Shown in pieces: positions 12,296 to 54,885 of a stretch of 64,000 nt of DNA (within the stretch, counting starts at the first letter, position 1; each line of letters starts with the position of its first letter). The notes under the pieces were generated by a model. The model saw nothing but the letters and a program-made list of their open reading frames with translations. It made no database searches and was not told the DNA's origin. The stretch comes from Leptonemataceae bacterium. Its GTDB lineage: Bacteria; Spirochaetota; Leptospiria; Leptospirales; Leptonemataceae. The position numbers and the translations under genes were made by a program. The stretch covers positions 768,001 to 832,000 of the forward strand of contig OZ245742.1 of NCBI GenBank assembly GCA_965227295.1. Reading direction: 5' to 3'.

Positions 12296-12296
12296 G

Positions 12297-21565: not shown

Positions 21566-21642
21566 ACCAGGCCCAAAGCTCAATTCATCGTCCTTGGGCA
21601 CGTCCTTCATTACACAGAACACATATGCTTTGATTTTTTTCA

Positions 21643-21671: not shown

Positions 21672-21699
21672 CCCCGAAAGAACCGACAAGGAGCGCTCC

Positions 21700-21825
21700 A
21701 TGAAAATCGAATCCGATGTATATTCCTTAGTAAGGCTTCCGGAACGAGGAATTATTCTCATCATTAGACAAAATCAGATAGTAGTGCTAAGGGACTATCG
21801 TATCGTGCGCCACATTAACCTGTAG
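21700..21825 (+). CDS. 41-aa small ORF ahead of cas8e
   Basis: AAGGAG RBS at 21688-21693, ATG at 21700, AT-rich; stops 6 nt before the cas8e GTG. Confidence 0.55.
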   Translation: MKIESDVYSLVRLPERGIILIIRQNQIVVLRDYRIVRHINL

Positions 21826-21831
21826 TCGACC

Positions 21832-25257: not shown

Positions 25258-25276
25258 GCACAGCAGACGATCATCG

Positions 25277-26059: not shown

Positions 26060-26748
26060 TGTACTTCAGTAAGATCGAAGTTCCGCCCCCCGGCTTCGGC
26101 CGTCCTCTGCCGTTGGGAGATCCCTACAGCGTCCACCAATCGATGTGGGCCCTCTTCCCCGAAGATCCCAATGCGCAGCGCGATTTTCTGTATCGCCAGT
26201 TGGATGATTCCGCGCGATCTTTTTACGTAGTCTCCGCACGTCGCCCGCAAGCTACCAGCGCACTCCCGTGGCAGATCCGCACAAAACAATACGATCCTCG
26301 CGTCTCGTCCGGACAACGACTCTGGTTCGAAGTCCGCGTCAATCCCACGGTGACACGCTCAGACGGCAGCCGACAACAGCGCCACGACTACGTCATCGAT
26401 TACAAAAAACGCCTGGAAAGCACGGCCGAAGCCGAACTCCCGTCCCCCGGCCGATTGCTACACGACGCCGCGTGTGAGTGGTTGGACAAACGCTGTGAGT
26501 CTCACGGCTTTACGTTCGAATCGCACGCGCTACGCGTACAAGATCGCGATTATCTTAAGTTTAAGAAGGGCTCAGCTTCGCCCGAAGTCACCATCGGCAC
26601 ACTCGATCTGGCCGGCCTGCTCACGGTCCAGGACCCGCAGCGCTTTCGCGAAACTCTCTATAACGGCATTGGTCGCTCTCGTAGCTTCGGCTGTGGTTTG
26701 CTGCTGGTCCGGCGTTCGGGGGGCCCGGGGATACACTCTTTACTTTAG
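26059..26748 (+). CDS. casE: Cas6e/Cse3
   Basis: Start MYFS at 26059; HQSMWALF, RDFLYR and the Gly-rich loop GIGRSRSFGCGLLL. Confidence 0.95.
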   Translation: MYFSKIEVPPPGFGRPLPLGDPYSVHQSMWALFPEDPNAQRDFLYRQLDDSARSFYVVSARRPQATSALPWQIRTKQYDPRVSSGQRLWFEVRVNPTVTRSDGSRQQRHDYVIDYKKRLESTAEAELPSPGRLLHDAACEWLDKRCESHGFTFESHALRVQDRDYLKFKKGSASPEVTIGTLDLAGLLTVQDPQRFRETLYNGIGRSRSFGCGLLLVRRSGGPGIHSLL

Positions 26749-27096
26749 CGGGGGCGTTGTTGGTCGGCGAATACGGCAGTCCCGACGATCAGCCGGCCAC
26801 CGAACCGCCGCGGTCCGTCTTTTTTCCGGCGGGATATGTCACCGATCCCCGGGAGGATTTGAATCCGGAGACGAGCGTGCGGTTACATTTTTTTTGGCAT
26901 AGATTAATGTAGCGAAGGTGAATTGCGTCTTACAAAATGTGGAGCTTTCTGCCGCCGCCCCGAAAACCAACGCAACCGCCCCGCCCCACAAGCGTCAGCG
27001 ATTGGAGCGATGGCCGAAGGCCAGGGGGTGACTAAAAAGTCCGCGGGAAATACAACGTGCCATATTTTGACAGTTTTGCGGCGAAGCCGCTCTTGG

Positions 27097-30855: not shown

Positions 30856-31992
30856 CTACCGAAGCAGCCCGCGCACTTCGGCCAGCAGCGCCTGCGTATA
30901 CTGCACCCGCCCCTCGAAGTTCATGTGCGAGCCGTCGAAGTACAATTCCGCCTCGCTCTCGAAGACTTCCGGCGCGAGCCGCACATACTTCACGTTTTCG
31001 TATTGATCCGCCGCCTCACGAAACACCGCGCGCACGTGCTCCTCAAAGCCCGCGTCACGTTCCGGAAAGAGCAGAATGTTCGGCGTCTCCAGCAACACGA
31101 ACGTCGTCTGTGGATGCTGCTGCGCAAGCGCGATGATGCGGCCGAACTCCGCCACGTCTCCGGCACTAATCTTCTCCGGCGAGTACTTAGCGTACTGCTC
31201 GCGCCAGAGTTGCAGGCGCGGGTCTTCGCCGGGGACCGTTGCCGGAGCCTCTTCTGCGTTCGGCCCGTCTCCGACATCGTCCTCGCCGTCATCCGCCGGC
31301 GTCCCGGGCGCGCCGCTTGCGTCGACCGGCGCGCCGCCGCCCGCCGGGGTTCCGCCTAAATCGAAGATCGGCGTATCATCCTGCGACTCCCACTCAACGC
31401 CGAAGACCTTCGCGATCTGTTTACCGATGGCCCCCGCACGATTATAGATCCGCGCGCCGATGAAGTAGCTCACGCCGTTCAGGCTGCACGTGCGAAAGAT
31501 ACGTTCTACGTATAAATCCCGGGCGGCCATTTTTTCCGCCAGGTACTCGCGCAGTATGCCTTTGTGATAGTAACCGATCAACGGCCGGAAGGCCCCGGCA
31601 GGATAACGCTCCGCATGAAACGAGTACTTATCCGTTTCCAGAATGATCAGCGCGGGCGGTGACTCGCCGTGGCGTTCGAAGTATTCCTCAACCAGGTGCC
31701 GGCGTATTTCCATGTTGCCGCCGGGCACGCTGAGCATCGCAAACTCACGGCCGGTGGCCTGGCTCAGAAATTTCACGTCGATGTCCCAGAAGACGTGCGA
31801 CGAGCCCACAACCACGGCGTCGCTGCGTTCTTCAATCGCGCCGAGTTTGTGCAGATCGTTGAACCACGGATACACCGCGAAGTAAATCAAGGCGTCCATG
31901 AGAAAGACGCTCACGAGAAAGATCAACGCGCGCAGCGCAAAGCGCGGCCAGGGCGTCGCCTTAGAACTGGAAGTAGATGAAACTCTGTCCAT
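30856..31992 (-). CDS. SGNH-like partner of MBOAT (AlgJ/DltD-like)
   Basis: N-terminal TM, VGSSH, DGSHMN; overlaps the MBOAT gene. Confidence 0.75.
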   Translation of the reverse strand: MDRVSSTSSSKATPWPRFALRALIFLVSVFLMDALIYFAVYPWFNDLHKLGAIEERSDAVVVGSSHVFWDIDVKFLSQATGREFAMLSVPGGNMEIRRHLVEEYFERHGESPPALIILETDKYSFHAERYPAGAFRPLIGYYHKGILREYLAEKMAARDLYVERIFRTCSLNGVSYFIGARIYNRAGAIGKQIAKVFGVEWESQDDTPIFDLGGTPAGGGAPVDASGAPGTPADDGEDDVGDGPNAEEAPATVPGEDPRLQLWREQYAKYSPEKISAGDVAEFGRIIALAQQHPQTTFVLLETPNILLFPERDAGFEEHVRAVFREAADQYENVKYVRLAPEVFESEAELYFDGSHMNFEGRVQYTQALLAEVRGLLR

Positions 31993-33451
31993 AGAACGCT
32001 CCCAGTAAAAGAATCGCCGCGCACAAGAACGCGTAGTACGCGTAGTTCAAACCGAATCGCCGCATGCCCGGCAGGCCGCGCTCCACGAAAGAGCTGGCCC
32101 GCAACGCTTCGAACAGAACTAGCAGCACAATCACCACGACACCGGTTTTACGATAAAAAACCTCCAGCGGGAAAATGTGCAGCGCGACCCGGTCTTCGGC
32201 AAAAAGATGCGTGAGCACATACGCGGCGTCTTCGAAGCCCGGCGCCCGAAAGAAGACCCACGCCAGCACGGCGCAGTGAAAAACGAAAATCATCTTCAAG
32301 CAAGCAACAGCCGTCGCCGCCCGGCTGCCCTCCGCGAAGAGCGGGCCGCCGTACACGCGCACCCACAAACCGCTCGCAATCCGCTCCAGAATCAAGAGCG
32401 CGCCGTGAATACCGCCCCAGATCACGAAGTTCCAGCTTGCCCCGTGCCAGAGCCCGCTCACGACGAACACGATCATTAAGTTTACATAAACGCGCATTAG
32501 TCCGGCCCGGGAACCGCCCAGAGGAATGTAGAGGTAGTCCCGAAACCAGGTGGACAGCGAAATGTGCCAGCGCCGCCAGAAGTCCGCGAAGCCCGTGCTG
32601 AAGTACGGCGTGCGAAAGTTCGTCATAAGCCGCACGCCGAGAACGCGAGCCGCGCCGATGGCAATGTCCGAGTAACCGGAGAAGTCGCAATAAATCTGAA
32701 ACGCGAAGAAGTAGGTCGCAACGATCAGCGGCCAGCCGGAAAACTCGCCGGCGTTGTTGTAGACCGGATCCACGTACATCGCCAGACGATCGGCCACCAC
32801 GAGTTTCTTGAAGAAACCCCACAGCATCAGCTTGAGTCCGCTCACGGCCTCGTCGCGGTCGAAGAACCGCCGGGCCTGCAATTGCGGAATGAGATTCGCC
32901 GGGCGTTCGATGGGCCCGGCCACAAGCTGCGGAAAAAACATGACGAACAGCGCGAGCATCTGCGGATCCTGCTCGGCATGCTGATCGCCGCGATAGACTT
33001 CGATCAAATAACCGGCGGACTGGAACGTATGGAACGACAACCCGATCGGCAGAATTAACTGCAGCGCCCAGGGTTCCACGGCGACACCGAAGAACTGCGC
33101 TACGGCGTCCACGTTTTCGTTGAAGAAGTTGAAGTATTTAAAGACAAACAGCACGCCGAAGTTCGCGATCAACGAAAGCACCAGTACAATGCGCGCGTTC
33201 TTCTTGCTGATGCCCGCGGCCGCCACGCCGTCGACGGCCGGGCCGGCGTGGCGGCGTTCCAGGTACAGCGCGGCCGCGTAATCCACGGCGATGGTCGCGA
33301 GCAAAATGAAAATGTAGTACCACACGAAGAACATGTAGAACACGCAGCTCGCGATCAAGAGCAACGTCTTCCGCCAGGCGTGGGGAATCGAGAAGTGCAG
33401 CAGGACGACGGCGGGGAAGAAGATCAGAAAGTGCCAGGAGTTGAATAGCAT
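31961..33451 (-). CDS. MBOAT O-acyltransferase (AlgI-like)
   Basis: MLFNS, LPIGLSFHTFQ, QIYCDFSGYSDIAIG, FWRRWHISLS, SGLWHGA. Confidence 0.95.
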   Translation of the reverse strand: MLFNSWHFLIFFPAVVLLHFSIPHAWRKTLLLIASCVFYMFFVWYYIFILLATIAVDYAAALYLERRHAGPAVDGVAAAGISKKNARIVLVLSLIANFGVLFVFKYFNFFNENVDAVAQFFGVAVEPWALQLILPIGLSFHTFQSAGYLIEVYRGDQHAEQDPQMLALFVMFFPQLVAGPIERPANLIPQLQARRFFDRDEAVSGLKLMLWGFFKKLVVADRLAMYVDPVYNNAGEFSGWPLIVATYFFAFQIYCDFSGYSDIAIGAARVLGVRLMTNFRTPYFSTGFADFWRRWHISLSTWFRDYLYIPLGGSRAGLMRVYVNLMIVFVVSGLWHGASWNFVIWGGIHGALLILERIASGLWVRVYGGPLFAEGSRAATAVACLKMIFVFHCAVLAWVFFRAPGFEDAAYVLTHLFAEDRVALHIFPLEVFYRKTGVVVIVLLVLFEALRASSFVERGLPGMRRFGLNYAYYAFLCAAILLLGAFYGQSFIYFQF

Positions 33452-40441: not shown

Positions 40442-40499
40442 CCGACTTTCTTTTGATATATTGAGATATCTGCATATCTCAACAGGCGGATATCTCAAT

Positions 40500-41720
40500 A
40501 TGCGGATACATCGAAACTCCGATGCCACCGGCATCTACATCCATTATCCGTACTGCATCCGCAAGTGCGCGTACTGTGATTTCTACTCGGTGGGCCTCGA
40601 AGAGTCCGGACATTACGAACGCGGGCGCGGCGTTGCTCCGGAGTTGCAGCGGGCGTATTACGACGCCCTGGTCCGGGAACTCATCACACGCGCGCCGGCC
40701 TTTCAGCGCTGCGGCCAGGTGAACACGATCTTCTTCGGCGGCGGCACCGCGTCGCTGCTCCCGCCGGACATCATCGCGGACATCCTCGCGCGGATTCGCG
40801 AGCACTTCGAAATCACCGCGGACGCCGAGATCACCCTCGAAGGCAACCCCGAAAACTTTCACTCATCGTACCTTAAGCAACTGGAAGACATCGGCGTCAC
40901 TCGCGTAAACGTGGGCCTGCAAACATTTCGCGAGGATTTGTTAGATCTGGTGAATCGATACTATGATCCGGGCCGCTACGACGAGGTCCTCGCCAACCTG
41001 GCGAACAGCAGCATCGCGGCGGTGGGCGGCGATCTCATCTACGGCTTTCCCGGACAGAGCCGCGACGACTTCGAACACGATCTGCAACGTGTACTGGAAC
41101 ACCAGGCCATCAACCATCTTTCGATCTACAGCCTTACGGTAGAACCGGGCACGCCGTACGCCGCGCAGCTCCGGCAGCGCAAGATCGCCGCGCCGTTGGA
41201 AGGATTACAGGAAGAAGTCTTCCGCGATCTGCCGGCGATCCTGCGCGCGGCCGGCTTTGATCATTACGAGGTCTCGAACTACGCGCGACCGGGCTTCGCG
41301 TGCCGGCACAATCTACGCTACTGGTTGTACGAAAGTTACATGGGCCTCGGTCCCGGCGCCCACGGCTTCGACGGCCGGTTTCGCTACGGCAATCCGCGCA
41401 ACGTGGCGGCCTGGCAACGCAATCCCGCGGGGGCGGAGCAAAGCGAGCACGAGCCGTTGAGTGATCTGCCGCTCATGTATTTGCGACTGTGCTCGGGAAT
41501 TCGCGCGGAGGTGTTTGAGCAGGTGCTGCAAGATGAGCAGTACACCGGACGCCGCGATATTGCGCGCCTCGTAACGGAACAATTCCAGCGCTGGGCATCC
41601 CGGGGCCGCGGCCTCTTCGCGGACGATCAGTTTTCCTGGAGCATGAGCGGACTGCTGAACCTCGACGAACATGTCCTCGAAATGAGCGCGGCCCTGGAAG
41701 CCGTCGCATCGACGACGTAA
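40500..41720 (+). CDS. hemW: Radical SAM heme chaperone HemW/HemN-like
   Basis: YIHYPYCIRKCAYCDF, GGGT, HYEVSNYA, HNLRYW, GLGPGAH. Confidence 0.9.
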   Translation: MRIHRNSDATGIYIHYPYCIRKCAYCDFYSVGLEESGHYERGRGVAPELQRAYYDALVRELITRAPAFQRCGQVNTIFFGGGTASLLPPDIIADILARIREHFEITADAEITLEGNPENFHSSYLKQLEDIGVTRVNVGLQTFREDLLDLVNRYYDPGRYDEVLANLANSSIAAVGGDLIYGFPGQSRDDFEHDLQRVLEHQAINHLSIYSLTVEPGTPYAAQLRQRKIAAPLEGLQEEVFRDLPAILRAAGFDHYEVSNYARPGFACRHNLRYWLYESYMGLGPGAHGFDGRFRYGNPRNVAAWQRNPAGAEQSEHEPLSDLPLMYLRLCSGIRAEVFEQVLQDEQYTGRRDIARLVTEQFQRWASRGRGLFADDQFSWSMSGLLNLDEHVLEMSAALEAVASTT

Positions 41721-41745: not shown

Positions 41746-43374
41746 TCAATTGCGAGACATGGACAGCATGCCCACGATCATGGGCGTAATCTCCACGTTA
41801 AACATCTTACTGCGCATGGGCTCCGGCGCCTGCTGCTTTCCCCACTTAATGACCCGCAGCATTTTATCGATGTTCAGATCCACGCCCCTGGTCTTCGGCG
41901 AATGCAGCGCGACGATGTCCCGCGGCAGGTACTCCGCTTCACCGAGGATTTCAAAGATGCGTGCGGCGCCGGCCTGAGGCGGCATCGCGCCGCTTTCCAC
42001 CTGATCCAGCACCTCGCCGGCCTGCATCACCAGTCGCTTCGTAAATTCGGAGTAGGCACTGCTGTCCCGGAACATGGGCACCAGCTCTTGATTGCGGGTG
42101 GTAATGTACTTGATGACCAGGCCGAAGGCCCACAGGTCCTGGATCATGCCGAGGGCGGTCCAAACCATGATCATCGCGTTCCACAGCTCAGGATGTACCG
42201 TGGATCGATACATGTCGGCGATAAAGGCGTCCGTAGCATCCAGCGACTGCGCCAGTTTGTTCAGTCCGGCGAAGTCATCTTCCGAAAAGCGATTTTGCTT
42301 TAGAGCAGTATCCAGGCGATCCGCAATGAAGTGCACGAAATTCAGCGAGCTGATGAGCCCGGTGGAGAACAGGGGATCCACAAAGCCGTAGACGTTGCTC
42401 ATTAAGGCCCAGCGTTTACCGGCCGCGTTCTTTGCCGAGTACTGCAAACGTCCCGTCGATACAAAGGGACGCGTGGACTCCGCGTGACGCAGGTGTTCGG
42501 CGACGCTGGGAAATTGCTTCACGTATTTGAAGAACTCTTCTTCCGGACTCAGATCCGTGGGCGGATGCACGTTCCCGTCCAGAGTCACGCCCACGCTGCA
42601 CAGCTCGTTGCTTCCGTTGCGTCCGTCCTCGTTGTTGAACGGAATGATCCAGAACCAACCGCCTTCGAAGACGTGATGCATGGTACCTTCGTGCAAACTA
42701 CGCGACAATCCCTCGGAGGGGCCGATCTCATCGTACGCGGGGATATTCTTAAAGTGCGTGAAGATCGTGCGGGAGTTCGTCTTAAAACGAGTGGGCTCCT
42801 CCCGAAGATCGAGCATCTGGACGAGCTTCGAATTTTTTCCGGTACAATCGACGAAGAACTTTCCGGTAATCGTCCCTTTATCTTTCAGGCTTACCGTAAC
42901 CCGGTCATCGTCCAGATCAATGTCGGTAAGCTCCGTTTCTTCCATGTAATCCACGCCGTAGGATTGCGCGGTTTGTACCATGAAGTGATCGACCTGCTCG
43001 CGAAAGAAATGGCTCTCGCGGATGACGGGAAGCTCCGGCGGAATGAGTTGCCGGCCGTGATCCGCCAGTTGTGCCTGGCCGGGCTGATGGTAAGCGAAAC
43101 CGAACGAACGTTTGATGCCGCAGGCCTTCGCGAAGGCATGACGAGAGCGCGGCGGATTGGCCAGGTCCACCAGTTCCGGAATGTTGTAATGCTCTCCCAG
43201 GATCCACAACCAGATGGTACTCTGGGGTTGCATGGCTTCTCCCAGGGCGAACCGCGGATGGCTGCCCCGCTCGATCATGCTTACGGCATGGCCCTGCTTT
43301 GCCAGAATCGTGGCCAGAACACTGCCGGCCAGGCCCGAGCCGAGGACAATCACATCGGTTTCTCTATTCATCAC
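41746..43374 (-). CDS. Flavin-dependent halogenase, PrnC-like
   Basis: GSGLAG, HPRFALGE, GIKRSFGF (candidate catalytic Lys), GWFWIIPF (WxWxIP), FVDPLFSTG. Confidence 0.88.
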   Translation of the reverse strand: MMNRETDVIVLGSGLAGSVLATILAKQGHAVSMIERGSHPRFALGEAMQPQSTIWLWILGEHYNIPELVDLANPPRSRHAFAKACGIKRSFGFAYHQPGQAQLADHGRQLIPPELPVIRESHFFREQVDHFMVQTAQSYGVDYMEETELTDIDLDDDRVTVSLKDKGTITGKFFVDCTGKNSKLVQMLDLREEPTRFKTNSRTIFTHFKNIPAYDEIGPSEGLSRSLHEGTMHHVFEGGWFWIIPFNNEDGRNGSNELCSVGVTLDGNVHPPTDLSPEEEFFKYVKQFPSVAEHLRHAESTRPFVSTGRLQYSAKNAAGKRWALMSNVYGFVDPLFSTGLISSLNFVHFIADRLDTALKQNRFSEDDFAGLNKLAQSLDATDAFIADMYRSTVHPELWNAMIMVWTALGMIQDLWAFGLVIKYITTRNQELVPMFRDSSAYSEFTKRLVMQAGEVLDQVESGAMPPQAGAARIFEILGEAEYLPRDIVALHSPKTRGVDLNIDKMLRVIKWGKQQAPEPMRSKMFNVEITPMIVGMLSMSRN

Positions 43375-43383
43375 GGATCCTGC

Positions 43384-44217
43384 TCAGTTCGAATGATCGT
43401 AAGTTTCGATGACGACCGCGTGTTCGTGCTGTCCGCCCATCTGAGAACGGAAGCGATGAACGAATACGATCTCATCCGTTCCTTTACGCAGTTCGGTTTC
43501 AATCGTGAAGTCATCGTACAAATACAAGGGCCGGCTGAATTGCAGGTCGACCTTCGTAATGGAACGACCGAGCAGACCCTGGAGTTCCGGATGCCCTTGC
43601 AGCCCGGCGCCCATTTCGAGCAGAAGCTTCTCTCGCGCGGACGCCGCGAACACGCCGGCTTCGATGTACGACCATTGATCGGCCGCTTCGCAATCATGAC
43701 GATAGATGCGATGACTGACCGAAGAAGTCGCCACTAACTCGTGATTGCGCAGTTTGGCGATCTGCGGTTTCAATCTCCAGCTCACAATGCGTTTGGTGAT
43801 TTTGTCCGGCGGAAAGTAGTCCAGCACCGGCGAACCCACCGGTTCCGGTGAGGCGGCCCACTGGCCGTCTTCCAGTCGCAAAGGACAGCCCAGCATTTCC
43901 AGCGAGGCGAAATGACCCTGGCCGTTTCCGAAGAAGGCTTCCCCCCAGATCACCGTGCGTTTGTTTACGAGTTCCATTTCCGTGCTTACGTTAAAATCTT
44001 CGCTGTCAAAAAACGTGTGCGGCTTTAAGTAGCGAATCCGGGCCCCGAGCACGGCAATGCCGAACTGATCTTCAGTCAGCAGCTTCGGAAAACTCTTCAG
44101 ATGCGCCTTCACCGTCTGGGCCCAACTGCGCATGCCGATTTGCAGCACCGCCCGCGGTTGCATTTGATGCGAGTCGAACAGACTCGTGTCGTGGAGAACG
44201 TTCAGTGTAGTTTGCAT
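43384..44217 (-). CDS. Putative double hot-dog (thioesterase-like) protein
   Basis: Two similar halves with 'I-x-Y-x2-P' and 'LQFSRPLYLYD' strands typical of 4HBT-like folds. Confidence 0.55.
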   Translation of the reverse strand: MQTTLNVLHDTSLFDSHQMQPRAVLQIGMRSWAQTVKAHLKSFPKLLTEDQFGIAVLGARIRYLKPHTFFDSEDFNVSTEMELVNKRTVIWGEAFFGNGQGHFASLEMLGCPLRLEDGQWAASPEPVGSPVLDYFPPDKITKRIVSWRLKPQIAKLRNHELVATSSVSHRIYRHDCEAADQWSYIEAGVFAASAREKLLLEMGAGLQGHPELQGLLGRSITKVDLQFSRPLYLYDDFTIETELRKGTDEIVFVHRFRSQMGGQHEHAVVIETYDHSN

Positions 44218-44484
44218 TCAGCCCCCCGCGATCGCGGTAATAATGTCCAGCCTGTCGTTCGGCCCGACTCGATTCAGCAAGGCATCTTCCTGGATCTGCT
44301 CGCCGTTCAAGAACAGCCGGTGAATGGAACGTACGGTGCCGTCCGCCTCGAACAGAATCTTCTTCAGCTCCGGATACGTCTCCGAGAGCATCTCCAGACC
44401 CTGGGCGACGTTGTCGGCCTCGGTCATGTGGTTGCGTTGATAGTTGGTAAAACGCTGCAAAGTGCCTGTTACGGTGATGTTCAT
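44218..44484 (-). CDS. MoaD/ThiS-family sulfur carrier protein
   Basis: 88 aa, LFLNGE, C-terminal AIAGG. Confidence 0.92.
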   Translation of the reverse strand: MNITVTGTLQRFTNYQRNHMTEADNVAQGLEMLSETYPELKKILFEADGTVRSIHRLFLNGEQIQEDALLNRVGPNDRLDIITAIAGG

Positions 44485-44524
44485 ATACTTGCTTCTCCCT
44501 GTGATCTTATGGTTGATTACTTCG

Positions 44525-45685
44525 TTAAATGAAATCGAAGAGTGTTTGCACGCCGGTATTGACTTCCAGTACGTCCTGCGCCCCGGCCCCGGGGATCATG
44601 CCGTAGCAATCACGCACGTAACGTTCAATGGGATTCGAGCAGAGATACGCGTTGCCGCCCATCAACTCAAAGGCCCACCGGGTTACATTCACGACGGCTT
44701 CCGTGCATTTGTACTTGGCGATGGACGGCGTATCATCAAAGGTCCCGTTCAACTCCGCCCCGGTAATCGCATCCAACGAGCCGTAGATCAGAGACTTCGC
44801 GGCCTCGTACTCCACGCGCATGCGGCCCAGCTTCGCCTGGACGGATCCCAGGGCCGAGATGGGCTGGCCGTGACGCACCGTTCGATTCAGGTGATCCACG
44901 CAGAGATGGATCGTGCGGGCCATGCGTCCCAGGGAAGCGGCGGCCAGCAGCGTGCGGCGCGGGTTTAAGAATTTCTGGACGTGCGTTAGTCCGCCGTCCG
45001 GAGCCAGAATTCTGTTTTGCGGAACTCTAACATCTTCCATGACGATCTTAGCGAGTCCGGCGGAGCGAAAGCCCATGGTTTCCAGCGGCACCAGACGCAT
45101 CCCCGGATCACCGGGTTCGAGCATGACCACGCAGAGTTCATCCGCGGCTTCATCGACGACGTAGGTCATGAAGGCGTCGGCGAGCATGCCGCCCGTCACC
45201 ATCACCTTCTCGCCGCGCACGACGAGGTCGTCGCCGTCTCGCTTCGCGACGCTTTTCAGATTCAGCCCGTCCGCGTTTTCGGTATAAGCGAACGAGGCCA
45301 GGGTATCGCCCGTAGCCAGGCCGCGAACGTAACGATCGATGAGATACTCATTGCCGGAGGAATGGATCATGTTCGCCACGGCGGGAAAGAGACTGATCGT
45401 CAGTCCAAACGAACCGTCATCGCAAATTCGTCCCATCCGCTCCAGCACACGCCCCCACTGCGCTGCCGTACAACCGCGGCCCCCCACTTCCACGGGCAAC
45501 GAGGCCCGTAACAGCTCGCAGGCTTCCGGCGTTTTTAACAGCGCGCGATCGAACGTTTCGCACTTTCGGTCCCGCTCCGCGCATGTGCGGGATACCTCCG
45601 CCAGGAAACTACCCGCAACGGAGTCTACCCACATGGGAATATCCTCTAACTGCTCGCCGATCGACTCTTGCATCTTAACGTTCAT
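44525..45685 (-). CDS. Acyl-CoA dehydrogenase family protein
   Basis: SFAYTE, GEK-x2-VT, TMGFRSAG, VQAKLG, MGGNAY, ERYVRD. Confidence 0.88.
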   Translation of the reverse strand: MNVKMQESIGEQLEDIPMWVDSVAGSFLAEVSRTCAERDRKCETFDRALLKTPEACELLRASLPVEVGGRGCTAAQWGRVLERMGRICDDGSFGLTISLFPAVANMIHSSGNEYLIDRYVRGLATGDTLASFAYTENADGLNLKSVAKRDGDDLVVRGEKVMVTGGMLADAFMTYVVDEAADELCVVMLEPGDPGMRLVPLETMGFRSAGLAKIVMEDVRVPQNRILAPDGGLTHVQKFLNPRRTLLAAASLGRMARTIHLCVDHLNRTVRHGQPISALGSVQAKLGRMRVEYEAAKSLIYGSLDAITGAELNGTFDDTPSIAKYKCTEAVVNVTRWAFELMGGNAYLCSNPIERYVRDCYGMIPGAGAQDVLEVNTGVQTLFDFI

Positions 45686-45890
45686 TTGCGGCTCCCATCC
45701 GAACGATGGCGCCGCGGTGTTGCTTTGCGAGAAGATTTAGCCGGACATAGTCGGAATCCGGAGAAACACTCCCCAAAGGAGAGAGTGTCGCGCGATTTGC
45801 TGCACCGGCAACGATTTAGATGCTGACGATTTCGGTGACCGGGGCGGAATACTGGCTGTAAAACTATATATGGAAGCAGGTTGGAGTAAC

Positions 45891-47051
45891 ATGAAATCAC
45901 AAACAGTCAACAAACCACTCATTGCGAGCGAGAGCCTGCCGGAACTGGAGCCCGCGGAGGTCCGCCGTTACGACCGGCACATTATTCTTCCGAACGTTGG
46001 CCGCGAAGGACAGCAGAAACTCAAGGCCGCGCGCGTACTGATCATCGGCGCCGGCGGCCTGGGCTCACCCATCTCCCTGTATCTGGCCGCGGCGGGAGTG
46101 GGAACGCTCGGCCTGGTTGACTCCGATACCGTGGACGAATCGAATCTCCAGCGCCAGGTGCTCTACGGTTCCCAGGACCTGGGACTTTCCAAAGTAGACA
46201 GAGCGGAAGCCCGTCTCAATCAATTGAATCCCCGGACGGAAATCGTAAAGTTCAAAGACAGACTGAGCTCGGCCAACGCCCTCGATATCATCGGGGACTT
46301 TGATCTGGTCGTGGACGGTACGGACAACTTCCCCACGCGCTACCTGGTCAACGATGCGTGCGTCATGCTGGGCAAGCCCTTCTGTTACGGCAGCATCTAT
46401 CAATTCGAAGGGCAGGCGTCCGTCTTCCATCACGCAGACGGGCCGTGCTATCGCTGTCTGTATCCGGAACCGCCGCCGCCGCACCTCGCCCCTTCCTGTT
46501 CCGAGGGCGGCGTGTTCGGTGTTTTGCCTTCGATCATCGGTTCGATCCAGGCCACGGAAGCGATCAAGCTCATCCTCGGCCAGGGAGATGTCTTGAGCGG
46601 ACGTTATCTACTCTTTGACGCGCTCTCCATGGACTTCCGGGAGCTCGCCATCAAACGTAAGTCGGACTGCGCCGTATGCGGGGATGCGCCGACGGTGACC
46701 GACCTCATCGACTACAATCAATTTTGCGGCCTGCCCCCGGTTAACACGGACCCGGGTTACAAAGAAATTACCGGCGCGGATCTCAGGACCCTGCTCGCCG
46801 AAACGAATCCACCGGTGCTGTTGGATGTTCGGGAAGACCATGAGCGCGCCGTGGCTCTCATTCCGGAGTCCATTCACATTCCCATGCACGACGTCGCGTC
46901 TCGCCTGAGCGAGCTGGACGCGCAGCGACCCACCGTCGTGCATTGTAAGATGGGCGGACGTTCCGCGAAGATTTGCGGTACGCTGCTGGCCGCCGGCTTC
47001 ACCGACGTCAGTAATCTCAAAGGTGGAATCGACGCGTACTACGCCGGGTAA
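45891..47051 (+). CDS. moeZ: MoeB/E1-like adenylyltransferase-rhodanese fusion (MoeZ)
   Basis: RYDRHI, GAGGLG, SNLQRQ, PCYRC, C-terminal rhodanese DVRE...HCKMGGRS. Confidence 0.93.
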   Translation: MKSQTVNKPLIASESLPELEPAEVRRYDRHIILPNVGREGQQKLKAARVLIIGAGGLGSPISLYLAAAGVGTLGLVDSDTVDESNLQRQVLYGSQDLGLSKVDRAEARLNQLNPRTEIVKFKDRLSSANALDIIGDFDLVVDGTDNFPTRYLVNDACVMLGKPFCYGSIYQFEGQASVFHHADGPCYRCLYPEPPPPHLAPSCSEGGVFGVLPSIIGSIQATEAIKLILGQGDVLSGRYLLFDALSMDFRELAIKRKSDCAVCGDAPTVTDLIDYNQFCGLPPVNTDPGYKEITGADLRTLLAETNPPVLLDVREDHERAVALIPESIHIPMHDVASRLSELDAQRPTVVHCKMGGRSAKICGTLLAAGFTDVSNLKGGIDAYYAG

Positions 47052-47077: not shown

Positions 47078-48517
47078 TTAGAACTGAAAATAAATAAACT
47101 GCCCGCTCGCGTCGCCGTAGACCGTCACCAGGTAACCGACCACGAACGTGCCGACGAACACTAATACGTAACGAAGCACAGTTTGCCGGCCGAGCCATTC
47201 TTTGATGCCCGGGTAGTACTGCGGAATGTTAAACAACAACGCCGTAAGACTCAAGAGCAACGTGCCGTCGAAGGACCCCACGGGATTCGCGCGCTGGAAC
47301 GTGAAGATGCCGTAAAAGAGATCCATGGCCTTATCGAAACCCGGGGCCGCGAAGAACACGGCGGTGTAAGCAAACAACAGATACGTACGCGCGCCGCGCA
47401 AAAAGTTCGCCCAACGGGCGTCATCGGGTAGAATCTGCCAGCCGCGTCCCACCGTAAACTGTTCCCAACATAATATTAAGCCGAGCAGCACGCCCCATAC
47501 GAACATCGTCCAGGTGGCCCCGTGCCAGAGGCCGCCCAACGCCATAGTGATTAACACGTTAACATATACCCGGGACGGCCCGACCCGCGAACCGCCCAGC
47601 GGAATGAAGATGTAATCGCGCAACCACATGGTGAGCGTGATGTGCCAGCGTCGCCAGAGCTCGCGCATGGACTTCGCGAGGAACGGACCCGCAAAGTTTT
47701 CGGGAATCTCGTAGCCGATCATCTTCGCCATGCCGCGGGCCATGTCCGTATAGCCGGAGAAGTCGCAGTAGACCTGTGAGATGAAGGCAATCGGAGCGAG
47801 GATCAGGGCCGTGGCGTCGTACTCGGCGGGGTTTTGCCAGAGCGGCGTCATCACCATGCCGATGCGATCGGCGATCAGCACTTTCTTAATGACGCCCTGT
47901 AAAACCAGCAACGAACCGTTCAGCATCTTATCCCGGGACGGCTGCGGATTGTCGATCTGCGGAATGAAATCCGAAGAACGCATGATCGGCCCGGCGATGA
48001 ATTGCGGAAAGAACAGAATGAAAATGACGTACTTGCGAAAGGAAACGCCGGAACTAACGCCGTCTACCTCGGTCTCTTTGATCTCGCCGCGATACGCGTC
48101 GACGAGAAAGGCGACGATCTGGAACGTATAGAACGAGATGGCGATGGGCAACTCGATGCCGAAGTCGTAGTCTTCGATCCAGTTGCGCCGCAGGTCGGCG
48201 ATGTAAGGATCCCCGATGAGCACGCCGGCGGATTCTGCGAAGAAATAAAAATACTTAAAGAATGCAAGGTTCCCGATGTCTATGACCAGGCCCACGATCA
48301 ACGGCCACAGCATCTTGCGTTTCATAAGCAAGGCGCTGAGATAGTAGTTTATGCAGATCAGCAGTAGAAAAACGCCGAGGAAAAAGGGGCTATACCAGGC
48401 GTAGAAAATAAAGCTTGTCAGGATGATGAGAAGCTGCTTTCCTCGAACCGGCAACGGCCAGTAGAGCAGATAAAAAACAAAAAAGAGTACGAGAAAAACT
48501 GCCGAGTTGAACAGCAT
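47078..48517 (-). CDS. MBOAT O-acyltransferase (second copy)
   Basis: MLFNS, LPIAISFYTFQ, YCDFSGYTD, WRRWHI, GLWHGA. Confidence 0.95.
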   Translation of the reverse strand: MLFNSAVFLVLFFVFYLLYWPLPVRGKQLLIILTSFIFYAWYSPFFLGVFLLLICINYYLSALLMKRKMLWPLIVGLVIDIGNLAFFKYFYFFAESAGVLIGDPYIADLRRNWIEDYDFGIELPIAISFYTFQIVAFLVDAYRGEIKETEVDGVSSGVSFRKYVIFILFFPQFIAGPIMRSSDFIPQIDNPQPSRDKMLNGSLLVLQGVIKKVLIADRIGMVMTPLWQNPAEYDATALILAPIAFISQVYCDFSGYTDMARGMAKMIGYEIPENFAGPFLAKSMRELWRRWHITLTMWLRDYIFIPLGGSRVGPSRVYVNVLITMALGGLWHGATWTMFVWGVLLGLILCWEQFTVGRGWQILPDDARWANFLRGARTYLLFAYTAVFFAAPGFDKAMDLFYGIFTFQRANPVGSFDGTLLLSLTALLFNIPQYYPGIKEWLGRQTVLRYVLVFVGTFVVGYLVTVYGDASGQFIYFQF

Positions 48518-48576
48518 TCTGCCAGAAAGGGCGCCGGGACATCGATGTCAATCAGGACCGCCTCTCCCCCACTTCC

Positions 48577-48876
48577 ATGCAAATCAAAAGAGAAGGTGAC
48601 ACAGTACACATTCGTTTCGAAGGCCCCGCCACCACGGAACTGGACCGCAACGAGCTGGATTTCCCCGACGACGGCAGCGTCCGTGAATTCAACCTGGAAT
48701 TCCGCGGCGTGAAACTCATCTCGTCCATGGTCCTGGCCAGCATGATGTTCCTCATGGACCGCCACCGCGGCAAAGCGAAGATCCGTCTCATGAATCTGGA
48801 GCCGGAAATGCGCAATTTGCTCACCCGCACCGGCCTGGGCTCCTGGCTGGAGATGGCGGAAAGCTCAGACAAATAA
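48577..48876 (+). CDS. Small STAS-like protein
   Basis: LEFRGVKLISS...LLTRTGL pattern. Confidence 0.65.
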   Translation: MQIKREGDTVHIRFEGPATTELDRNELDFPDDGSVREFNLEFRGVKLISSMVLASMMFLMDRHRGKAKIRLMNLEPEMRNLLTRTGLGSWLEMAESSDK

Positions 48877-49045
48877 TTCCCCGACTCACTACAAAAAAGC
48901 TGGTTTTCCCGGGCTGGAGTCCCATACTCTTCTCCACCGATATTGCAACATGGCGTAAGTCGACCGGTAATGAGACGCGTTCTCAGAAAAAATCTTGCCG
49001 CGAGCACGCTTTCAGGCTAACGTAGAACTATAGAGAGGATCAGCC

Positions 49046-50998: not shown

Positions 50999-52084
50999 TC
51001 AGGAGACGGGTTCTGCCACGTAGTCTTCCAGGTAGAAGATGCGCGTGTCTTCCCGTTTGCCGCGCAGTTTGTTCACGCGCAGGCGTTTTACCCTGGCATG
51101 CGCGCCCAGGGCGTCGCGGGTAGCACCGTCTATGAGTATATCGAGGTTCGCGCGCTTGGTCAACATTTCCAGGCGGCTGGCCACGTTCACCGGATCGCCC
51201 ACCACGGAGTACTCGATGTGCCGGACCGAGCCGATGTTGCCCGCGAAGACCCGACCCGTGGCGATGCCCATGGCCGCTCGCAACGGTTCCGTAAGGTACT
51301 CGGGGCGGACGTCGTTGTACGTGCTGAGGTACTCGCGGATCTGCAACGCGCAGCGAACGCAATTCGCAGCGTCCTCCGGCGAAGAGACCGGGCAACCGAA
51401 TGTCGCAAAAACACCGTCGCCGGTCATCTTGTTGACCGAGCCGTGATTGCCGTATACCAGGTCCATAATGTCCGTAAAAATCTCCGAAAGAAATGAGGAG
51501 AACTCTCGCGGCCCGAGGCTTTCGCCGATCCCGGTACTGTTTCGCAGATCGAAAAACATCAATGAAGCCGTGACGTTGGCGCCGGCCATATCCGCGTCGT
51601 CGTCGTTCAGAATTTTTTCGATGAGTTCGTCCGAGAAGTAACGGGCGAGCCGGTTGCGTTCGCGGGCCAGTTTATCGTTCTCCGCCTTCATGTACTGGCG
51701 GTAGTGCTTGAGCTCGATGAGGTTGCGCAGGCGAATGGCCATCTCCGCCAGATTGAAGGGTTTTTGAATGTACTCGTCCGCGCCGTGCCAGAGCGATTTG
51801 ATCTTCACCTTTTCGCTCTCATCGTCCGAGATGATCATGATCGCTGTTTCTTCGGGACGGCGGGCCTCCTTTACGCGATCGATGAGCTGAAGATTGTCCG
51901 GCCCGGGGTTCTCCATGCCCAGGAGCACGACGTCCGGACGCACATCGCGAACGAGCTCTTCGATCTGCTTCGCACTCGAACTGGTTTCAATGACGTAGCC
52001 GAGTTCGCGGACAGCCTGTTCCAGCAGCGCCAGGGTTTTCGTATCTTCATCCACGGCCAGCAGGCGATGGTTCTCGGTGCCCAT
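50999..52084 (-). CDS. Receiver domain plus class III adenylate/guanylate cyclase
   Basis: REC (VDED, PDVVLLG, GADEYIQKPF); cyclase FFDLRNST, KMTGDG, GDPVNVASRLE. Confidence 0.92.
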   Translation of the reverse strand: MGTENHRLLAVDEDTKTLALLEQAVRELGYVIETSSSAKQIEELVRDVRPDVVLLGMENPGPDNLQLIDRVKEARRPEETAIMIISDDESEKVKIKSLWHGADEYIQKPFNLAEMAIRLRNLIELKHYRQYMKAENDKLARERNRLARYFSDELIEKILNDDDADMAGANVTASLMFFDLRNSTGIGESLGPREFSSFLSEIFTDIMDLVYGNHGSVNKMTGDGVFATFGCPVSSPEDAANCVRCALQIREYLSTYNDVRPEYLTEPLRAAMGIATGRVFAGNIGSVRHIEYSVVGDPVNVASRLEMLTKRANLDILIDGATRDALGAHARVKRLRVNKLRGKREDTRIFYLEDYVAEPVS

Positions 52085-52149: not shown

Positions 52150-54885
52150 CTACAGCGGCAGTTGAATCGAAAACTCGGTAAACCGTCCCGGGGCGAAGCT
52201 TGTGCGAATCTTACCGCCCAGGTCCTGAATCCCTTTTTTAATGATGTCCATGCCGACACCCCGGCCGGCGAGCTTATCCGATTCATCGGCCGTAGAAAGG
52301 CCTGGCATGTAGATGAGCCGGGCAATCTGCGCCTCGGACCAGGCGTTGATTTCGTCGGCGCTCCACCGGCCGGACTCCAGGGCCAGGCGCCGCAGCTTAT
52401 CGATGGCCAGGCCGCGACCGTCGTCCCGGATCGTAAGATTCAAGCGCCGCTGATCGTTGTCTTCGAGGATCTGCGCCGCGAGCTGAATGGTACCGCAGGC
52501 CGCCTTGGCCGCACCCACGCGCTCGTCCGGTGTTTCGATGCCGTGCGACAGGGAGTTGCGCACTAACTGCACCAGAATGTCCTTTAGCGGCTTACGGAAT
52601 TTCTGCGGAATCATTTCGGCTTCGAAAGCGGCGTGATCCAGGACGCACTCTTTGCCCAGCTCCGTGCTGAGTTTTTCCACGACTCCGGCGAGGCTCTTCA
52701 GGAAGGCTTCGCGGAAACCGCCGACATCCCGCCCGTCGCCCGCGGTGGCGCTGCTGTAATCGGTGAGGCGGCGACTCAGTCCGCCCAGTTCGTCCAGGAG
52801 TTCCTGCATGCGACTCATCATAAAAACCAGCGGCAAAAAATCCGTGCGGCCCAGTTCCGGATTGGCCTTCATTTCCGAGAGACGCTCCTCGAACTCGTGG
52901 GCCTGGTCCGCCACGAAATTCAGTTCCAGGAGTGACGCGTTGCCTTTGATCGTATGCATGGCCCGGTAGATCGCGTCGAGCTTATCGGGAAGGGATAGCG
53001 ACGGGTCGTCGGTACGCAGAATGGTGTTGATGTTTTTAACTTCGGCATTGGAGTCTTCGATGAACTCCGCCAGCGTGGCGGGCTCCACGTGCAGCACGCT
53101 GAAGAGGCGCTCCATTTGTTGTTTGTTCTTTTCTTCGTTGGCCCGCAACTGCCGGGTGAGCATCACCTGTTCGGTTACGTCTTTGACGGCGCCCATCAAG
53201 TGCGTGATCGCCTTGCCGTCGTAGATGCGGCTGAACTTGCACTGTAAGATTTTCGTCGTCGCGCCGCGCACGGTATCGTCGAAGTGAATCTCGAACTCCT
53301 GCATGGGATTCAGGTCGCGCACCCACACGACGTCCATGTCCGGCTTGAGCATAAGTTCCAGGTAATCCTGAATAGCCTGCTGTTCTTCCGGAGTCACCAG
53401 GCGACCGATCATGGTGCCGAAATTTTCCTGGGCCAGGCTCTCGCGCTGGAAGATGCGTTCCAGGGCCTTACTGTACTGCGCCCCGATGATCATATCCGGC
53501 CCCATGAGAAACAGGCCCTCGTCCACGTTTTCAAAGATGGCGTCGCGTTCCTTGAGCGTGGCCTCGAGACTCGACATGACCGTGTTGTAGCGATACGCGA
53601 TCTGGCCGACCTCGGTGAACGGCTCCACGGGAACACGAATGCTCAGATCCCCGCTCCGCGCCTGAGCGTCCATGGCCTGAAACAAATCGATGAGTTCGGT
53701 AGTGGCCCCGTGCTCGGCGACGTTCAGGCCGATCTTCTCGTCCTCGGCACTAACTCTCAGCGGGATTATCTTATCGATCGTCCACAACATGAGGAACCCG
53801 ATGCCGAAGGCCCACACCGCACACGTACCCACACCGAGGGCCTGCGCGCCGAGCTGCTCCCACATGCCAAGGCCGGTACCGAGAATTTCCGGATCGCCGA
53901 AGAGCGCGACCGCGAGCGTCCCCCAGATACCGGCAGCGGCGTGCACCGGGAAGGCGCCCACCGCGTCGTCGATGTGCAGGCGCTCCAGTAACTCTTCAAC
54001 GGCGAACATTACCAGACCGCCGATGCTGCCGATGAGCACGGCGTACGGAGCGGTGACCGCATGACAACTGGCCGTGATGGCGACGAGCCCGGCCAGGCTG
54101 CCGTTAATAATGAACGTAACCTCGGCAACACGTTTGATGGACCAGCCGACGAGCAATGCGGCGACGCCGCCGGCGGCCCCGGCGAGCACGGTGTTGGTAA
54201 TGATGCGCGCAACGCTCGCGTCCATGGCCAGGGTCGAGCCGCCGTTGAAACCGAACCAACCGAACCACAGAAGCAACGAGCCGAGAATCGCGTTGGGAAT
54301 GTTGGAACCGGCAATGTCCCGGGTGGTACCGTCGTCGCCGAAACGTCCGCCCCGGGGTCCGAGTTGAATGACCGCGGCGAGTCCGACCCAGCCGCCGACA
54401 CTATGCACGACGGTGGAACCGGCGAAGTCCACAAAGCCTTCGCCGCCGAGCCAGCCGCCGTCACCCCAGACCCAGTGACCGAAGAGCGGATAGATCAGAC
54501 CGGAGACGACCAGGGTGGCGATGAGATAACTGGAGAAGCGCATGCGTTCTGCCGCGGCGCCGGAGACGATGGTGGCGGCCGTGGCACAGAACATGGCCTG
54601 GAACAAAAAGAACGAGGTATGCCACATCTCGCCGGCGGTATCGAGGAGAAAGGAGTCCGTTCCAACCCAGCCCTTGTAGGTGGCACCGAACATGAGAGCG
54701 AAACCGAAAGCCCAGAAGAGCAGAATCGAGAAGCCGAGGTCGCTCATGTTCTTCATGGCGACGTTGATGCTGTTTTTCGAACGCGTGAAACCGGATTCGA
54801 GCATGGCGAAGCCCGGTTGCATGAGGAATACGAGTCCGGATGCGAGCAGCACCCAGAGAATGTCAGTCAGGCTTTTCTCCGGCAT
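52150..54885 (-). CDS. Ammonium transporter fused to a PAS-like region, HPt and CheA-like HATPase
   Basis: Amt: FQAMF, DFAGSTVVH, WFGFNGGS, DDAVGAFPVH. Kinase: HTIKG, RNSLSHGIE, DDGRG, GRGVGMD. Confidence 0.93.
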   Translation of the reverse strand: MPEKSLTDILWVLLASGLVFLMQPGFAMLESGFTRSKNSINVAMKNMSDLGFSILLFWAFGFALMFGATYKGWVGTDSFLLDTAGEMWHTSFFLFQAMFCATAATIVSGAAAERMRFSSYLIATLVVSGLIYPLFGHWVWGDGGWLGGEGFVDFAGSTVVHSVGGWVGLAAVIQLGPRGGRFGDDGTTRDIAGSNIPNAILGSLLLWFGWFGFNGGSTLAMDASVARIITNTVLAGAAGGVAALLVGWSIKRVAEVTFIINGSLAGLVAITASCHAVTAPYAVLIGSIGGLVMFAVEELLERLHIDDAVGAFPVHAAAGIWGTLAVALFGDPEILGTGLGMWEQLGAQALGVGTCAVWAFGIGFLMLWTIDKIIPLRVSAEDEKIGLNVAEHGATTELIDLFQAMDAQARSGDLSIRVPVEPFTEVGQIAYRYNTVMSSLEATLKERDAIFENVDEGLFLMGPDMIIGAQYSKALERIFQRESLAQENFGTMIGRLVTPEEQQAIQDYLELMLKPDMDVVWVRDLNPMQEFEIHFDDTVRGATTKILQCKFSRIYDGKAITHLMGAVKDVTEQVMLTRQLRANEEKNKQQMERLFSVLHVEPATLAEFIEDSNAEVKNINTILRTDDPSLSLPDKLDAIYRAMHTIKGNASLLELNFVADQAHEFEERLSEMKANPELGRTDFLPLVFMMSRMQELLDELGGLSRRLTDYSSATAGDGRDVGGFREAFLKSLAGVVEKLSTELGKECVLDHAAFEAEMIPQKFRKPLKDILVQLVRNSLSHGIETPDERVGAAKAACGTIQLAAQILEDNDQRRLNLTIRDDGRGLAIDKLRRLALESGRWSADEINAWSEAQIARLIYMPGLSTADESDKLAGRGVGMDIIKKGIQDLGGKIRTSFAPGRFTEFSIQLPL

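Follow-up and report, generated by a model that had tools for sequence, protein, structure and literature searches.

Organization of the five-gene locus

A compact group of five genes was found at positions 41746-47051 of the 64,000-nt stretch analysed here (contig OZ245742.1, positions 768,001 to 832,000, of a Leptonemataceae bacterium of the order Leptospirales; hereafter the window). It combines a ubiquitin-fold carrier and a putative E1 activating enzyme with a flavoprotein of acyl-CoA dehydrogenase (ACAD) fold, a double hot-dog protein and a halogenase. The locus appears to be a small specialised-metabolism operon, probably devoted to a sulfur-containing small molecule. All five genes are intact in the open reading frame (ORF) listing; four are co-oriented on the minus strand and the E1 gene is divergent. 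The run of four begins with the ACAD-fold flavoprotein (44525-45685, 386 aa), in which all three ACAD Pfam domains were above cut-off and no known catalytic base was found. It continues with the ThiS/MoaD-like carrier (44218-44484, 88 aa, C-terminus TAIAGG; Pfam ThiS, E 1e-6, above cut-off) and with the double hot-dog protein, a thioesterase/acyltransferase-like member of an unnamed family (43384-44217, 277 aa; Pfam 4HBT_2, E 6e-4, below cut-off). The last gene encodes a flavin-dependent halogenase of the CtcP/PltM/PrnC group (41746-43374, 542 aa; Pfam Trp_halogenase, E 2e-15). Intergenic gaps within the run are 40 nt (ACAD-like/carrier), 0 (carrier/hot-dog) and 9 nt (hot-dog/halogenase). A divergent intergenic region of 184 nt (45686-45869), in which no sigma-70-like consensus was matched, separates this operon from the gene of a MoeZ/MoeB-type E1 adenylyltransferase with a C-terminal rhodanese domain (45870-47051, plus strand, 393 aa; ThiF, E 4e-83; Rhodanese, E 8e-15).

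A Pfam scan was carried out on 65 ORFs of the window (18 in the 35.1-54.9 kb stretch, and 47 others, each at least 90 aa long, elsewhere). Domains of nonribosomal peptide synthetases, polyketide synthases, acyl carrier proteins (ACP), AMP-ligases (CoA-ligases), MoaE, ThiG and JAMM proteases occurred in none of them, and the same scan displayed neither CysM nor any other sulfur-acceptor gene, nor an E2 or deconjugating enzyme. Redoxin and flavin reductase genes are absent from the five-gene module. An earlier interpretation of the bare DNA (the sequence-only reading) had described the four-gene run with its gaps and the divergent MoeZ, and had noticed no moaE, thiG, peptide or polyketide synthase, ACP or CoA ligase nearby; coordinates, domains and missing genes all agreed with our data.

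Conservation of the trio and its genomic context

The hot-dog protein, the least common part of the cluster, was used in a word-indexed search of 5.8 billion proteins, which yielded 19 relatives including the window's own. A scan of genome_contigs with the alignment of these relatives returned seven loci (L001 to L007) out of 36 pattern matches, and these loci were searched by tblastn with nine window proteins. In a plasmid collection, likewise searched by tblastn, the trio of carrier, ACAD-like and hot-dog genes occurred only on pSCL4 of Streptomyces clavuligerus, in three records. Genomic context thus covers nine loci with the window, as against at least 218 lineages of the hot-dog family.

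The three genes were adjacent in all seven genome_contigs loci and on pSCL4, that is, in nine loci out of nine when the window is counted. These loci range over four phyla, with representatives from Spirochaetota, Myxococcota, Burkholderiales and Actinomycetota (Streptomyces), and outside Leptospirales the identity to the window proteins falls to 24-50%. On pSCL4, the gene order is that of the window, with identities of 33% for the ACAD-like protein, 32% for the carrier and 24% for the hot-dog protein. The conserved unit is this trio, an uncharacterised three-gene cassette, and its arrangement is more than chance. The co-conservation expected by the sequence-only reading was therefore found for the trio, and only in part for the five genes as a unit. 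A MoeZ gene lay within 10 kb of the trio in four of the nine loci (the window, L001, L005 at the locus edge, and L006), and the halogenase was limited to two, the window and L001 (one of the seven fetched loci), both from Leptospirales. Among the nine loci, the halogenase is a lineage-specific add-on of this order.

L001, a 20.8-kb locus from a Leptospirales metagenome-assembled genome, was compared by blastn with the 64-kb window. Two matches only were obtained, one over MoeZ and the other from the ACAD-like gene to the halogenase (74-75% nucleotide identity). Four flanking genes of the window, also taken as queries, had no match in L001. As DNA similarity is confined to the five genes, they constitute a discrete block set in different surroundings in the two genomes.

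An exhaustive profile search among 1.84 billion representatives brought 218 members of the hot-dog family at E <= 1e-3 and 113 at 1e-30. Representatives were counted at 50% identity, so that the family holds at least 218 lineages, and its taxonomic range rests on eight loci together with the ESM Atlas listing. One member (P0100, 682 aa) is a natural fusion of hot-dog and ACAD moieties. Another, P0136 (810 aa), joins a malate synthase with all three Pfam domains to a C-terminal hot-dog of the same family that keeps the motif RxxCExxDQW; it may be a true fusion, perhaps pointing to glyoxylate or acyl-CoA chemistry, or a gene-calling artefact. Both came from the exhaustive search, and a separate search among longer proteins, which is weak evidence, gave no fused form.

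These data bear on the possibility that the neighbourhood is fortuitous, MoeZ and the carrier serving the synthesis of molybdenum cofactor, cysteine or thio-tRNA, the ACAD-like and hot-dog proteins being ordinary fatty-acid enzymes and the halogenase being unrelated. The E1 does match housekeeping MoeB/MoeZ models well (431-453 bits). Yet the trio stays adjacent across distant phyla at low identity, a hot-dog/ACAD fusion exists, and the five genes have travelled together as a block between two genomes. The ACAD-like protein is moreover devoid of a catalytic base (see below), and the hot-dog family has no name and few members (218 representatives in 1.84 billion). A sulfur-acceptor gene is wanting in the window (no MoaE, ThiG or CysM), and no riboswitch or other RNA matched Rfam upstream (E up to 1, 40-50 kb). 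Synteny, fusion and block transfer largely exclude a coincidental housekeeping neighbourhood, to which we would give only a very slight probability.

The company of the trio differs between lineages. In the six myxobacterial and Burkholderiales loci (L002 to L007, e.g. L003:5882-14704), it is embedded in a larger conserved gene set, apparently undescribed. This set comprises a UbiE-type methyltransferase, a family-less 115-aa protein, one or two TrmO-like proteins, a 'metal hydrolase' of family PF10118 and an AhpC/TSA-type redoxin, which is accordingly inside the cluster in six of the nine loci. It further holds a PHB-depolymerase-like esterase, a HemN/ChuW-like radical SAM protein of about 490 aa and often a major facilitator superfamily (MFS) transporter. 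PF10118 was met in the literature in unrelated contexts only. An E1 of the same ThiF plus rhodanese architecture lies inside the Roseateles cluster. On pSCL4, the neighbours are an ABC-F protein, an FAD-dependent aromatic hydroxylase, TetR regulators and a SARP regulator. Because its company varies in this way, a pattern of secondary metabolism, the trio looks like a portable cassette, fitted out with different tailoring genes in different lineages. The methyltransferases, HemN-like radical SAM proteins, MFS exporter, SARP and TetR regulators and ABC-F protein of the other loci suggest secondary metabolism likewise.

Two of these loci call for a separate remark. The pSCL4 locus (L008:8510-13833) carries the most minimal cassette, with the ACAD-like, carrier and hot-dog genes placed between an ABC-F-type ATPase and a SARP regulator; pSCL4 is a linear plasmid of 1.8 Mb, and the collection's gene table has no features at the cassette. 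In Roseateles aquae (L006:10877-16793), prodigiosin-like genes lie directly beside the cluster. They encode a HapK/REDY-like protein, a PEP-utilising enzyme resembling PigC, a phosphopantetheinyl transferase and an ACAD of 624 aa, and probably belong to a separate pyrrole-pigment cluster.

The E1 enzyme and its carrier

Both domains of the E1 scored above their Pfam cut-offs (ThiF 278.8 bits, Rhodanese 55.6 bits), and its translation displays two CxxC pairs together with the rhodanese-loop Cys. Among NCBIfam models, it passes the MoeB subfamily NF004281 (295.8 bits, cut-off 266), remains just below the cut-off of PRK08762 (447.8 against 449) and does not reach that of the MoeZ equivalog NF005902 (431 against 647). 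The carrier was recognized by Pfam ThiS (29.7 bits, cut-off 22.5). Its best NCBIfam match was SAMP1, with 39.5 bits for a cut-off of 60, and the MoaD and ThiS equivalogs likewise stayed below their cut-offs. The free C-terminal TAIAGG/AGG was invariant in eight orthologues out of eight and, as the carrier already ends in GG, it would need no unmasking protease. An E1 with a rhodanese domain beside a GG-ended ThiS/MoaD protein makes a protein thiocarboxylate in established MoeZ/MoaD chemistry. With a rhodanese domain on the E1 and a carrier that ends in GG without a protease, a sulfur relay is the most natural reading of the pair, and the ubiquitin-like sulfur relay put forward in the sequence-only reading is upheld to that extent.

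A ubiquitin-fold protein may also act on proteins. The carrier could be a Urm1/SAMP-like modifier or a persulfide donor in a stress response with no dedicated small-molecule product, the flavoprotein then oxidising the thiocarboxylate and the hot-dog protein resolving acyl-disulfide or thioester intermediates on protein targets. SAMP1 as best NCBIfam match (39.5 bits), the AhpC/TSA-type redoxin of six loci and a module without a scaffold-building enzyme would all suit such a role, and yeast Urm1 is conjugated to the peroxiredoxin Ahp1 according to the available part of PMC7016264. Yet the SAMP1 score remains below cut-off, the window's own module has no redoxin gene, and neither an E2 nor a JAMM or other deconjugating enzyme was found among the window ORFs. 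The PADLOC defence models were not matched save for generic E1 similarity, and the halogenase, methyltransferases, MFS exporter and SARP regulators fit small-molecule biosynthesis better. We therefore hold a protein-directed or redox role to be improbable. The narrower proposal of an anti-phage ubiquitin-like system was discarded, as PADLOC gave no match for six of the seven proteins submitted and only the generic E1 similarity for MoeZ.

The halogenase

Searches against PDB sequences placed the halogenase closest to CtcP (7xgb, E 6e-97 over residues 4-514), followed by PltM (6bza, E 6e-78 over residues 5-407), while the carrier-dependent PltA reached 1e-24 only. Flavin-dependent halogenases carry an FAD-binding GxGxxG motif and a WxWxIP motif; GSGLAG (residues 12-17) and GWFWIIP are their counterparts here and line up with those of both CtcP and PltM. 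A Lys stands opposite Lys88 in each of these two proteins, and Lys88 is the putative catalytic Lys; statements on catalytic residues, here and below, rest on pairwise or family alignments and on AlphaFold2 (AF2) models. In the available part of PMC10770391, a Lys is required in PrnC and named K97, and PrnC is grouped with PltM (30-36% identity) and stands closer still to CtcP. The window halogenase belongs to a very small lineage, with relatives at 85% and 78% identity and then at 43% at most, and the family counted 684 members at E <= 1e-30 among 8000 candidates scored. By these comparisons, the enzyme is assigned to the free-substrate CtcP/PltM group. The label 'PrnC-like' given to it in the sequence-only reading is fair at group level, with CtcP and PltM as the closest solved relatives here and the kinship to PrnC taken from PMC10770391.

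The ACAD-fold flavoprotein

The N, M and C domains of the ACAD-like protein were all above their Pfam cut-offs, and its AF2 model (pLDDT 80.8) is predicted to adopt the classical three-domain ACAD fold, with TM values of about 0.8 to SCAD, IVD, Bcd and AnaB in Foldseek (AnaB 4irn, 0.83). At the sequence level, the PDB matches were Bcd (5ol2, E 4e-32), Ch1DH (7p98, E 4e-30, second-best) and AnaB (4irn, E 9e-22). The prolyl-carrier oxidase AnaB presumably uses a base at a position where the window protein has none. A catalytic Glu at either the MCAD-type or the IVD-type position is said, in the part of PMC9293079 that is available, to be present in all dehydrogenating ACADs. In Ch1DH (7P98), described in the same portion of that source, N241 and T363 stand in for the two canonical glutamates, and Asp91 is the new base.

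Like Ch1DH, the window protein combines the classical fold with replacement of both glutamates, R243 aligning with N241 and A367 with T363. It differs in that the Asp91 base is aligned with Pro101. Neither Glu nor Asp was therefore found at any of the three known base positions. Asp90 of an invariant C-D-D motif was considered as an equivalent of Asp91 and rejected on the same alignment. Across a ten-sequence family alignment, R243-R244 was invariant (10/10), the 365-371 loop was Gly/Ala-rich and no Glu occurred in the 367 column. With no known catalytic base, ordinary alpha,beta-dehydrogenation cannot be assumed. The name 'acyl-CoA dehydrogenase' used in the sequence-only reading thus holds for fold and domains, and not for the residues on which the activity depends.

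Another Glu-less protein of this fold is AcdA, a 3-sulfinopropionyl-CoA desulfinase which, in the available text of PMC6370202, converts 3-sulfinopropionyl-CoA into propionyl-CoA and sulfite and so cleaves the beta C-S bond of an acyl-CoA without redox turnover. The NCBIfam desulfinase model, however, gave 91 bits on the window protein for a cut-off of 600. The Arg243-Arg244 pair is not described for Ch1DH or AcdA in the parts of PMC9293079 and PMC6370202 at hand.

The double hot-dog protein

The AF2 model of the hot-dog protein (pLDDT 87.8) displayed a double hot-dog of two helix-in-sheet units. Its best Foldseek matches were the acyl-ACP thioesterases 4gak, 2own and FatA (probability 1.00), followed by ACOT7 and LnmK (E 1e-13 to 1e-10, TM 0.6-0.74, identity 8-14%). 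FatA/FatB-type thioesterases and LnmK, the latter an acyl-CoA-to-ACP transferase/decarboxylase, share with it the double hot-dog of about 250-300 aa. They are distinguished from it by the very low identity (8-14%), by the absence of any PDB chain matching the family sequence profile at E up to 1, and by the family signature RxxCExxDxW accompanied by His254 and Glu271. Known sequence families were approached without being reached: 4HBT_2 scored 20.7 bits for a cut-off of 25.5, and YbgC/FadM 17.4 for 68.7.

Within the family, 16 of the 19 members tested matched Pfam 4HBT_2 weakly, and none matched the dehydratase families (MaoC, FabZ). Residues R173, C176, E177, D180, Q181, W182, R195, E196, P230, D235, H254 and E271 were conserved among 138 full-length members. 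The motif RxxCExxDxW was found in 147 of 166 family proteins, 130 of these 147 having the Cys, and in the AF2 model it lies where the central helix of the second hot-dog begins. Thioesterases of the 4HBT class carry their catalytic acid at this position. The hot-dog protein is on these grounds classed as thioesterase type rather than dehydratase type. A role as hydratase-like catalyst of thiocarboxylate addition to an enoyl thioester, which had been considered, is weakened by the same family matches. Prediction of a complex between the hot-dog protein and the carrier gave scores of 0.30 and 0.21, for a mark of 0.32, and counts neither way.

The structural neighbours of both proteins raise the question of whether the substrate rides on the carrier. 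The ThiS-like protein could be the covalent carrier of a growing intermediate, replacing a peptidyl carrier protein (PCP) or ACP, and the E1 would then correspond to an adenylation domain. The ACAD-like and hot-dog proteins would act on the tethered substrate, and the halogenase after its release. Such logic parallels that of pyoluteorin (PltF/PltL/PltE/PltA and PltM), where a flavin-dependent halogenase is likewise combined with an activating enzyme, a small carrier and an oxidase of the ACAD family; the window halogenase is a relative of PltM (E 6e-78). The two systems differ in that the window carrier is ubiquitin-fold instead of a phosphopantetheinyl PCP, and the activator an E1 instead of an ANL adenylase. 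In favour of a tethered substrate, NCBIfam models of prolyl-carrier-protein dehydrogenases scored on the ACAD-like proteins about as well as that of the CoA-dependent AcrC (window protein, AcrC 123.5 and RedW 118 bits; L003, RedW 136, PigA 121 and AcrC 114 bits). AnaB is among the structural matches of the flavoprotein, and the closest structures to the hot-dog protein recognise carrier proteins (acyl-ACP thioesterases, LnmK). A conserved Cys also stands beside the putative catalytic acid of the hot-dog protein in 130 of the 147 motif-bearing proteins. Yet the RedW, PigA and AcrC scores all fall well short of the family cut-offs (500-650 bits), and we know of no chemistry for a stable acyl group on a Gly-Gly carboxylate or thiocarboxylate. 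The rhodanese domain of the E1 points to sulfur transfer, and the halogenase is nearer to free-substrate CtcP/PltM than to PltA (6e-97 against 1e-24). Ubiquitin-fold templating seems unlikely to us. A fuller version must be called quite unlikely. In it, the trio is a new biosynthetic template with an E1-charged ubiquitin-fold handle, on which a sulfur-containing and perhaps heteroaromatic acid would be assembled and from which it would be set free by the ACAD-like and hot-dog proteins, to be halogenated in this organism.

A proposed sulfur-transfer pathway

We tentatively favour, while stopping short of calling it probable, a pathway where a protein-thiocarboxylate sulfur donor feeds a pair of thioester-processing enzymes, the product being then halogenated. 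The MoeZ-type E1 would adenylate the C-terminal Gly of the carrier, and its rhodanese domain would turn it into a thiocarboxylate, as suggested by domain content and established MoeZ/MoaD chemistry. Together, the flavoprotein and the hot-dog protein would process an acyl thioester, bound either to CoA or to the carrier C-terminus. They are probably the acceptor unit since they are fused in one organism and both superfamilies act on acyl thioesters. The carrier thiocarboxylate, as sulfur donor, would probably be joined to the activated acyl substrate, and the flavoprotein, with its Arg-Arg pair at the base site, would probably hold an anionic sulfur or carboxylate group and carry out some non-canonical chemistry instead of plain alpha,beta-dehydrogenation. 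The hot-dog protein, whose structural kin are carrier-protein thioesterases, would then probably cleave or transfer the thioester between carrier and product, yielding a small acid with a free thiol or thioacid and a regenerated carrier. In the Leptospirales version, the CtcP/PltM/PrnC-type halogenase would act last, being of the free-substrate type, and would chlorinate or brominate an electron-rich ring or enol of the free product, as its clade suggests.

Several observations weigh against this pathway. The module is without a scaffold-forming enzyme or a CoA ligase, so that the substrate must come from primary metabolism. MoeZ was missing within 10 kb in five of the nine loci, two of which are cut short on one side by contig ends, and the window E1 could be the general MoeZ of the cell. 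The halogenase is absent from seven of the nine loci, hence its substrate need not be the cassette product. The hot-dog protein matches 4HBT_2 only below the family cut-off, and its Foldseek likeness concerns a fold common to enzymes of different activity. The absence of a base from the ACAD-like protein undercuts the simplest scheme, in which an enoyl thioester would be formed and the thiocarboxylate would then add to it. The halogenated sulfur metabolite expected from the bare DNA is thus supported in part: the genes are real and co-conserved, and 'halogenated' fits the Leptospirales variant only.

Comparison with known systems

To our knowledge, few natural-product pathways have a dedicated sulfur-carrier protein, and the acceptor enzyme differs from one pathway to the next. 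The clusters of thioquinolobactin (Qbs) and of pyridine-2,6-dithiocarboxylic acid (PDTC; Pdt) reportedly associate a MoeZ/MoeB-type E1 and a MoaD/ThiS-like carrier with tailoring enzymes, by which sulfur enters a small molecule. Unmasking of the carrier falls to a JAMM protease in Qbs, Pdt and the chuangxinmycin (Cxn) cluster, where substrate activation is the task of an adenylating or pyridoxal phosphate (PLP) enzyme. Compared by description, only the E1 and the carrier are shared with the window locus. The window carrier is already GG-ended, no JAMM protease or ligase was found among the 65 ORFs and no PLP enzyme lies in the module, where the partners are instead an ACAD-fold and a double hot-dog protein. 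We know of no earlier link between sulfur relays and either a base-less ACAD-fold flavoprotein or a double hot-dog protein. The available part of PMC5925218 describes chuangxinmycin as a sulfur-carrier pathway in a natural-product cluster.

In the thioacid cassettes PtmA3/PtmU4 (thioplatensimycin) and TaaJ/TaaI (sulfenicin), an acyl-CoA takes sulfur from an E1-made protein thiocarboxylate, according to the accessible portion of bioRxiv 10.1101/2024.10.16.618611. As described there, the likeness is again limited to E1 and carrier, and the acyl-CoA synthetase and CoA-transferase of these cassettes borrow both from primary metabolism. The window locus, in contrast, has a dedicated carrier, neither ligase nor CoA-transferase, and enzymes of other superfamilies. 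In the tropodithietic acid/tropolone pathway, which can give sulfur products, the available sections of PMC8283759 describe a non-canonical ACAD-like flavoenzyme (TdaE) and a thioesterase-like protein of unclear role (TdaD). Their likeness to the ACAD-like and hot-dog pair is one of description, and the pathway differs, in the same sections, by having neither sulfur-carrier protein nor E1, sulfur being thought to come via PatB and TdaB.

A full-text literature search that covered few subscription journals turned up no description of a carrier joined with ACAD-like and hot-dog proteins, with or without the halogenase. Within that scope, the combination is as unfamiliar as it had seemed from the bare DNA. 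The locus would represent sulfur-carrier-dependent specialised metabolism with acceptor enzymes of other superfamilies, with an outside chance of being categorically new, namely if the carrier acts as a template, in which case it would be the ubiquitin-fold counterpart of thiotemplating on PCP or ACP. Once worked out, the chemistry of the cassette would establish either a new way of bringing sulfur into acyl thioesters or a new role for ubiquitin-fold proteins, and would assign a function to a Glu-less ACAD lineage. It would also provide genome miners with a three-gene signature for a hitherto unseen class of sulfur metabolites. Its five-gene Leptospirales version is compact enough to be expressed whole, and the halogenase would mark the product by a Cl/Br isotope pattern.

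Neighbouring genes and other features of the window

Two adjacent genes were considered as cluster members and rejected. The HemW-like radical SAM gene at 40461-41720, convergent to the halogenase, is missing from L001, passes the HemW equivalog (211.8 bits, cut-off 205.4) and shares only 25-28% identity with the HemN/ChuW-like radical SAM genes in the clusters of other loci. Its adjacency looks coincidental given its absence from L001 and its passing of the HemW cut-off. On the other side, the MBOAT gene at 47078-48517 was missing by tblastn from all seven genome_contigs loci, from which the flanking GH3 and 151-aa genes were absent as well (0/7).

The window contains two genes for MBOAT/DltB-like membrane O-acyltransferases, the one just mentioned and another at 31961-33451. 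Each is followed by a gene without family match (48552-49007 and 30856-31992, respectively). Further on, a gene whose 911-aa product fuses an ammonium transporter to Hpt and histidine-kinase ATPase domains (52150-54885) adjoins a response-regulator/adenylate-cyclase gene (50999-52084).

A type I-E CRISPR-Cas locus extends over positions 12500-26750 of the window. About 64 copies of a repeat of some 29 nt, with 61-nt spacing, make up arrays on either side of cas1 and cas2 (14489-15641), one at about 12.5-14.3 kb and then again from near 15.7 kb onward. Downstream come cas3 (18487-21477), cse1, cse2, a cas7-like CT1975 gene and a CRISPR_assoc (PF08798) gene, the last of which ends at 26748. The first array is closely preceded by a fragment of an IS4/5-type transposase (11792-12469).

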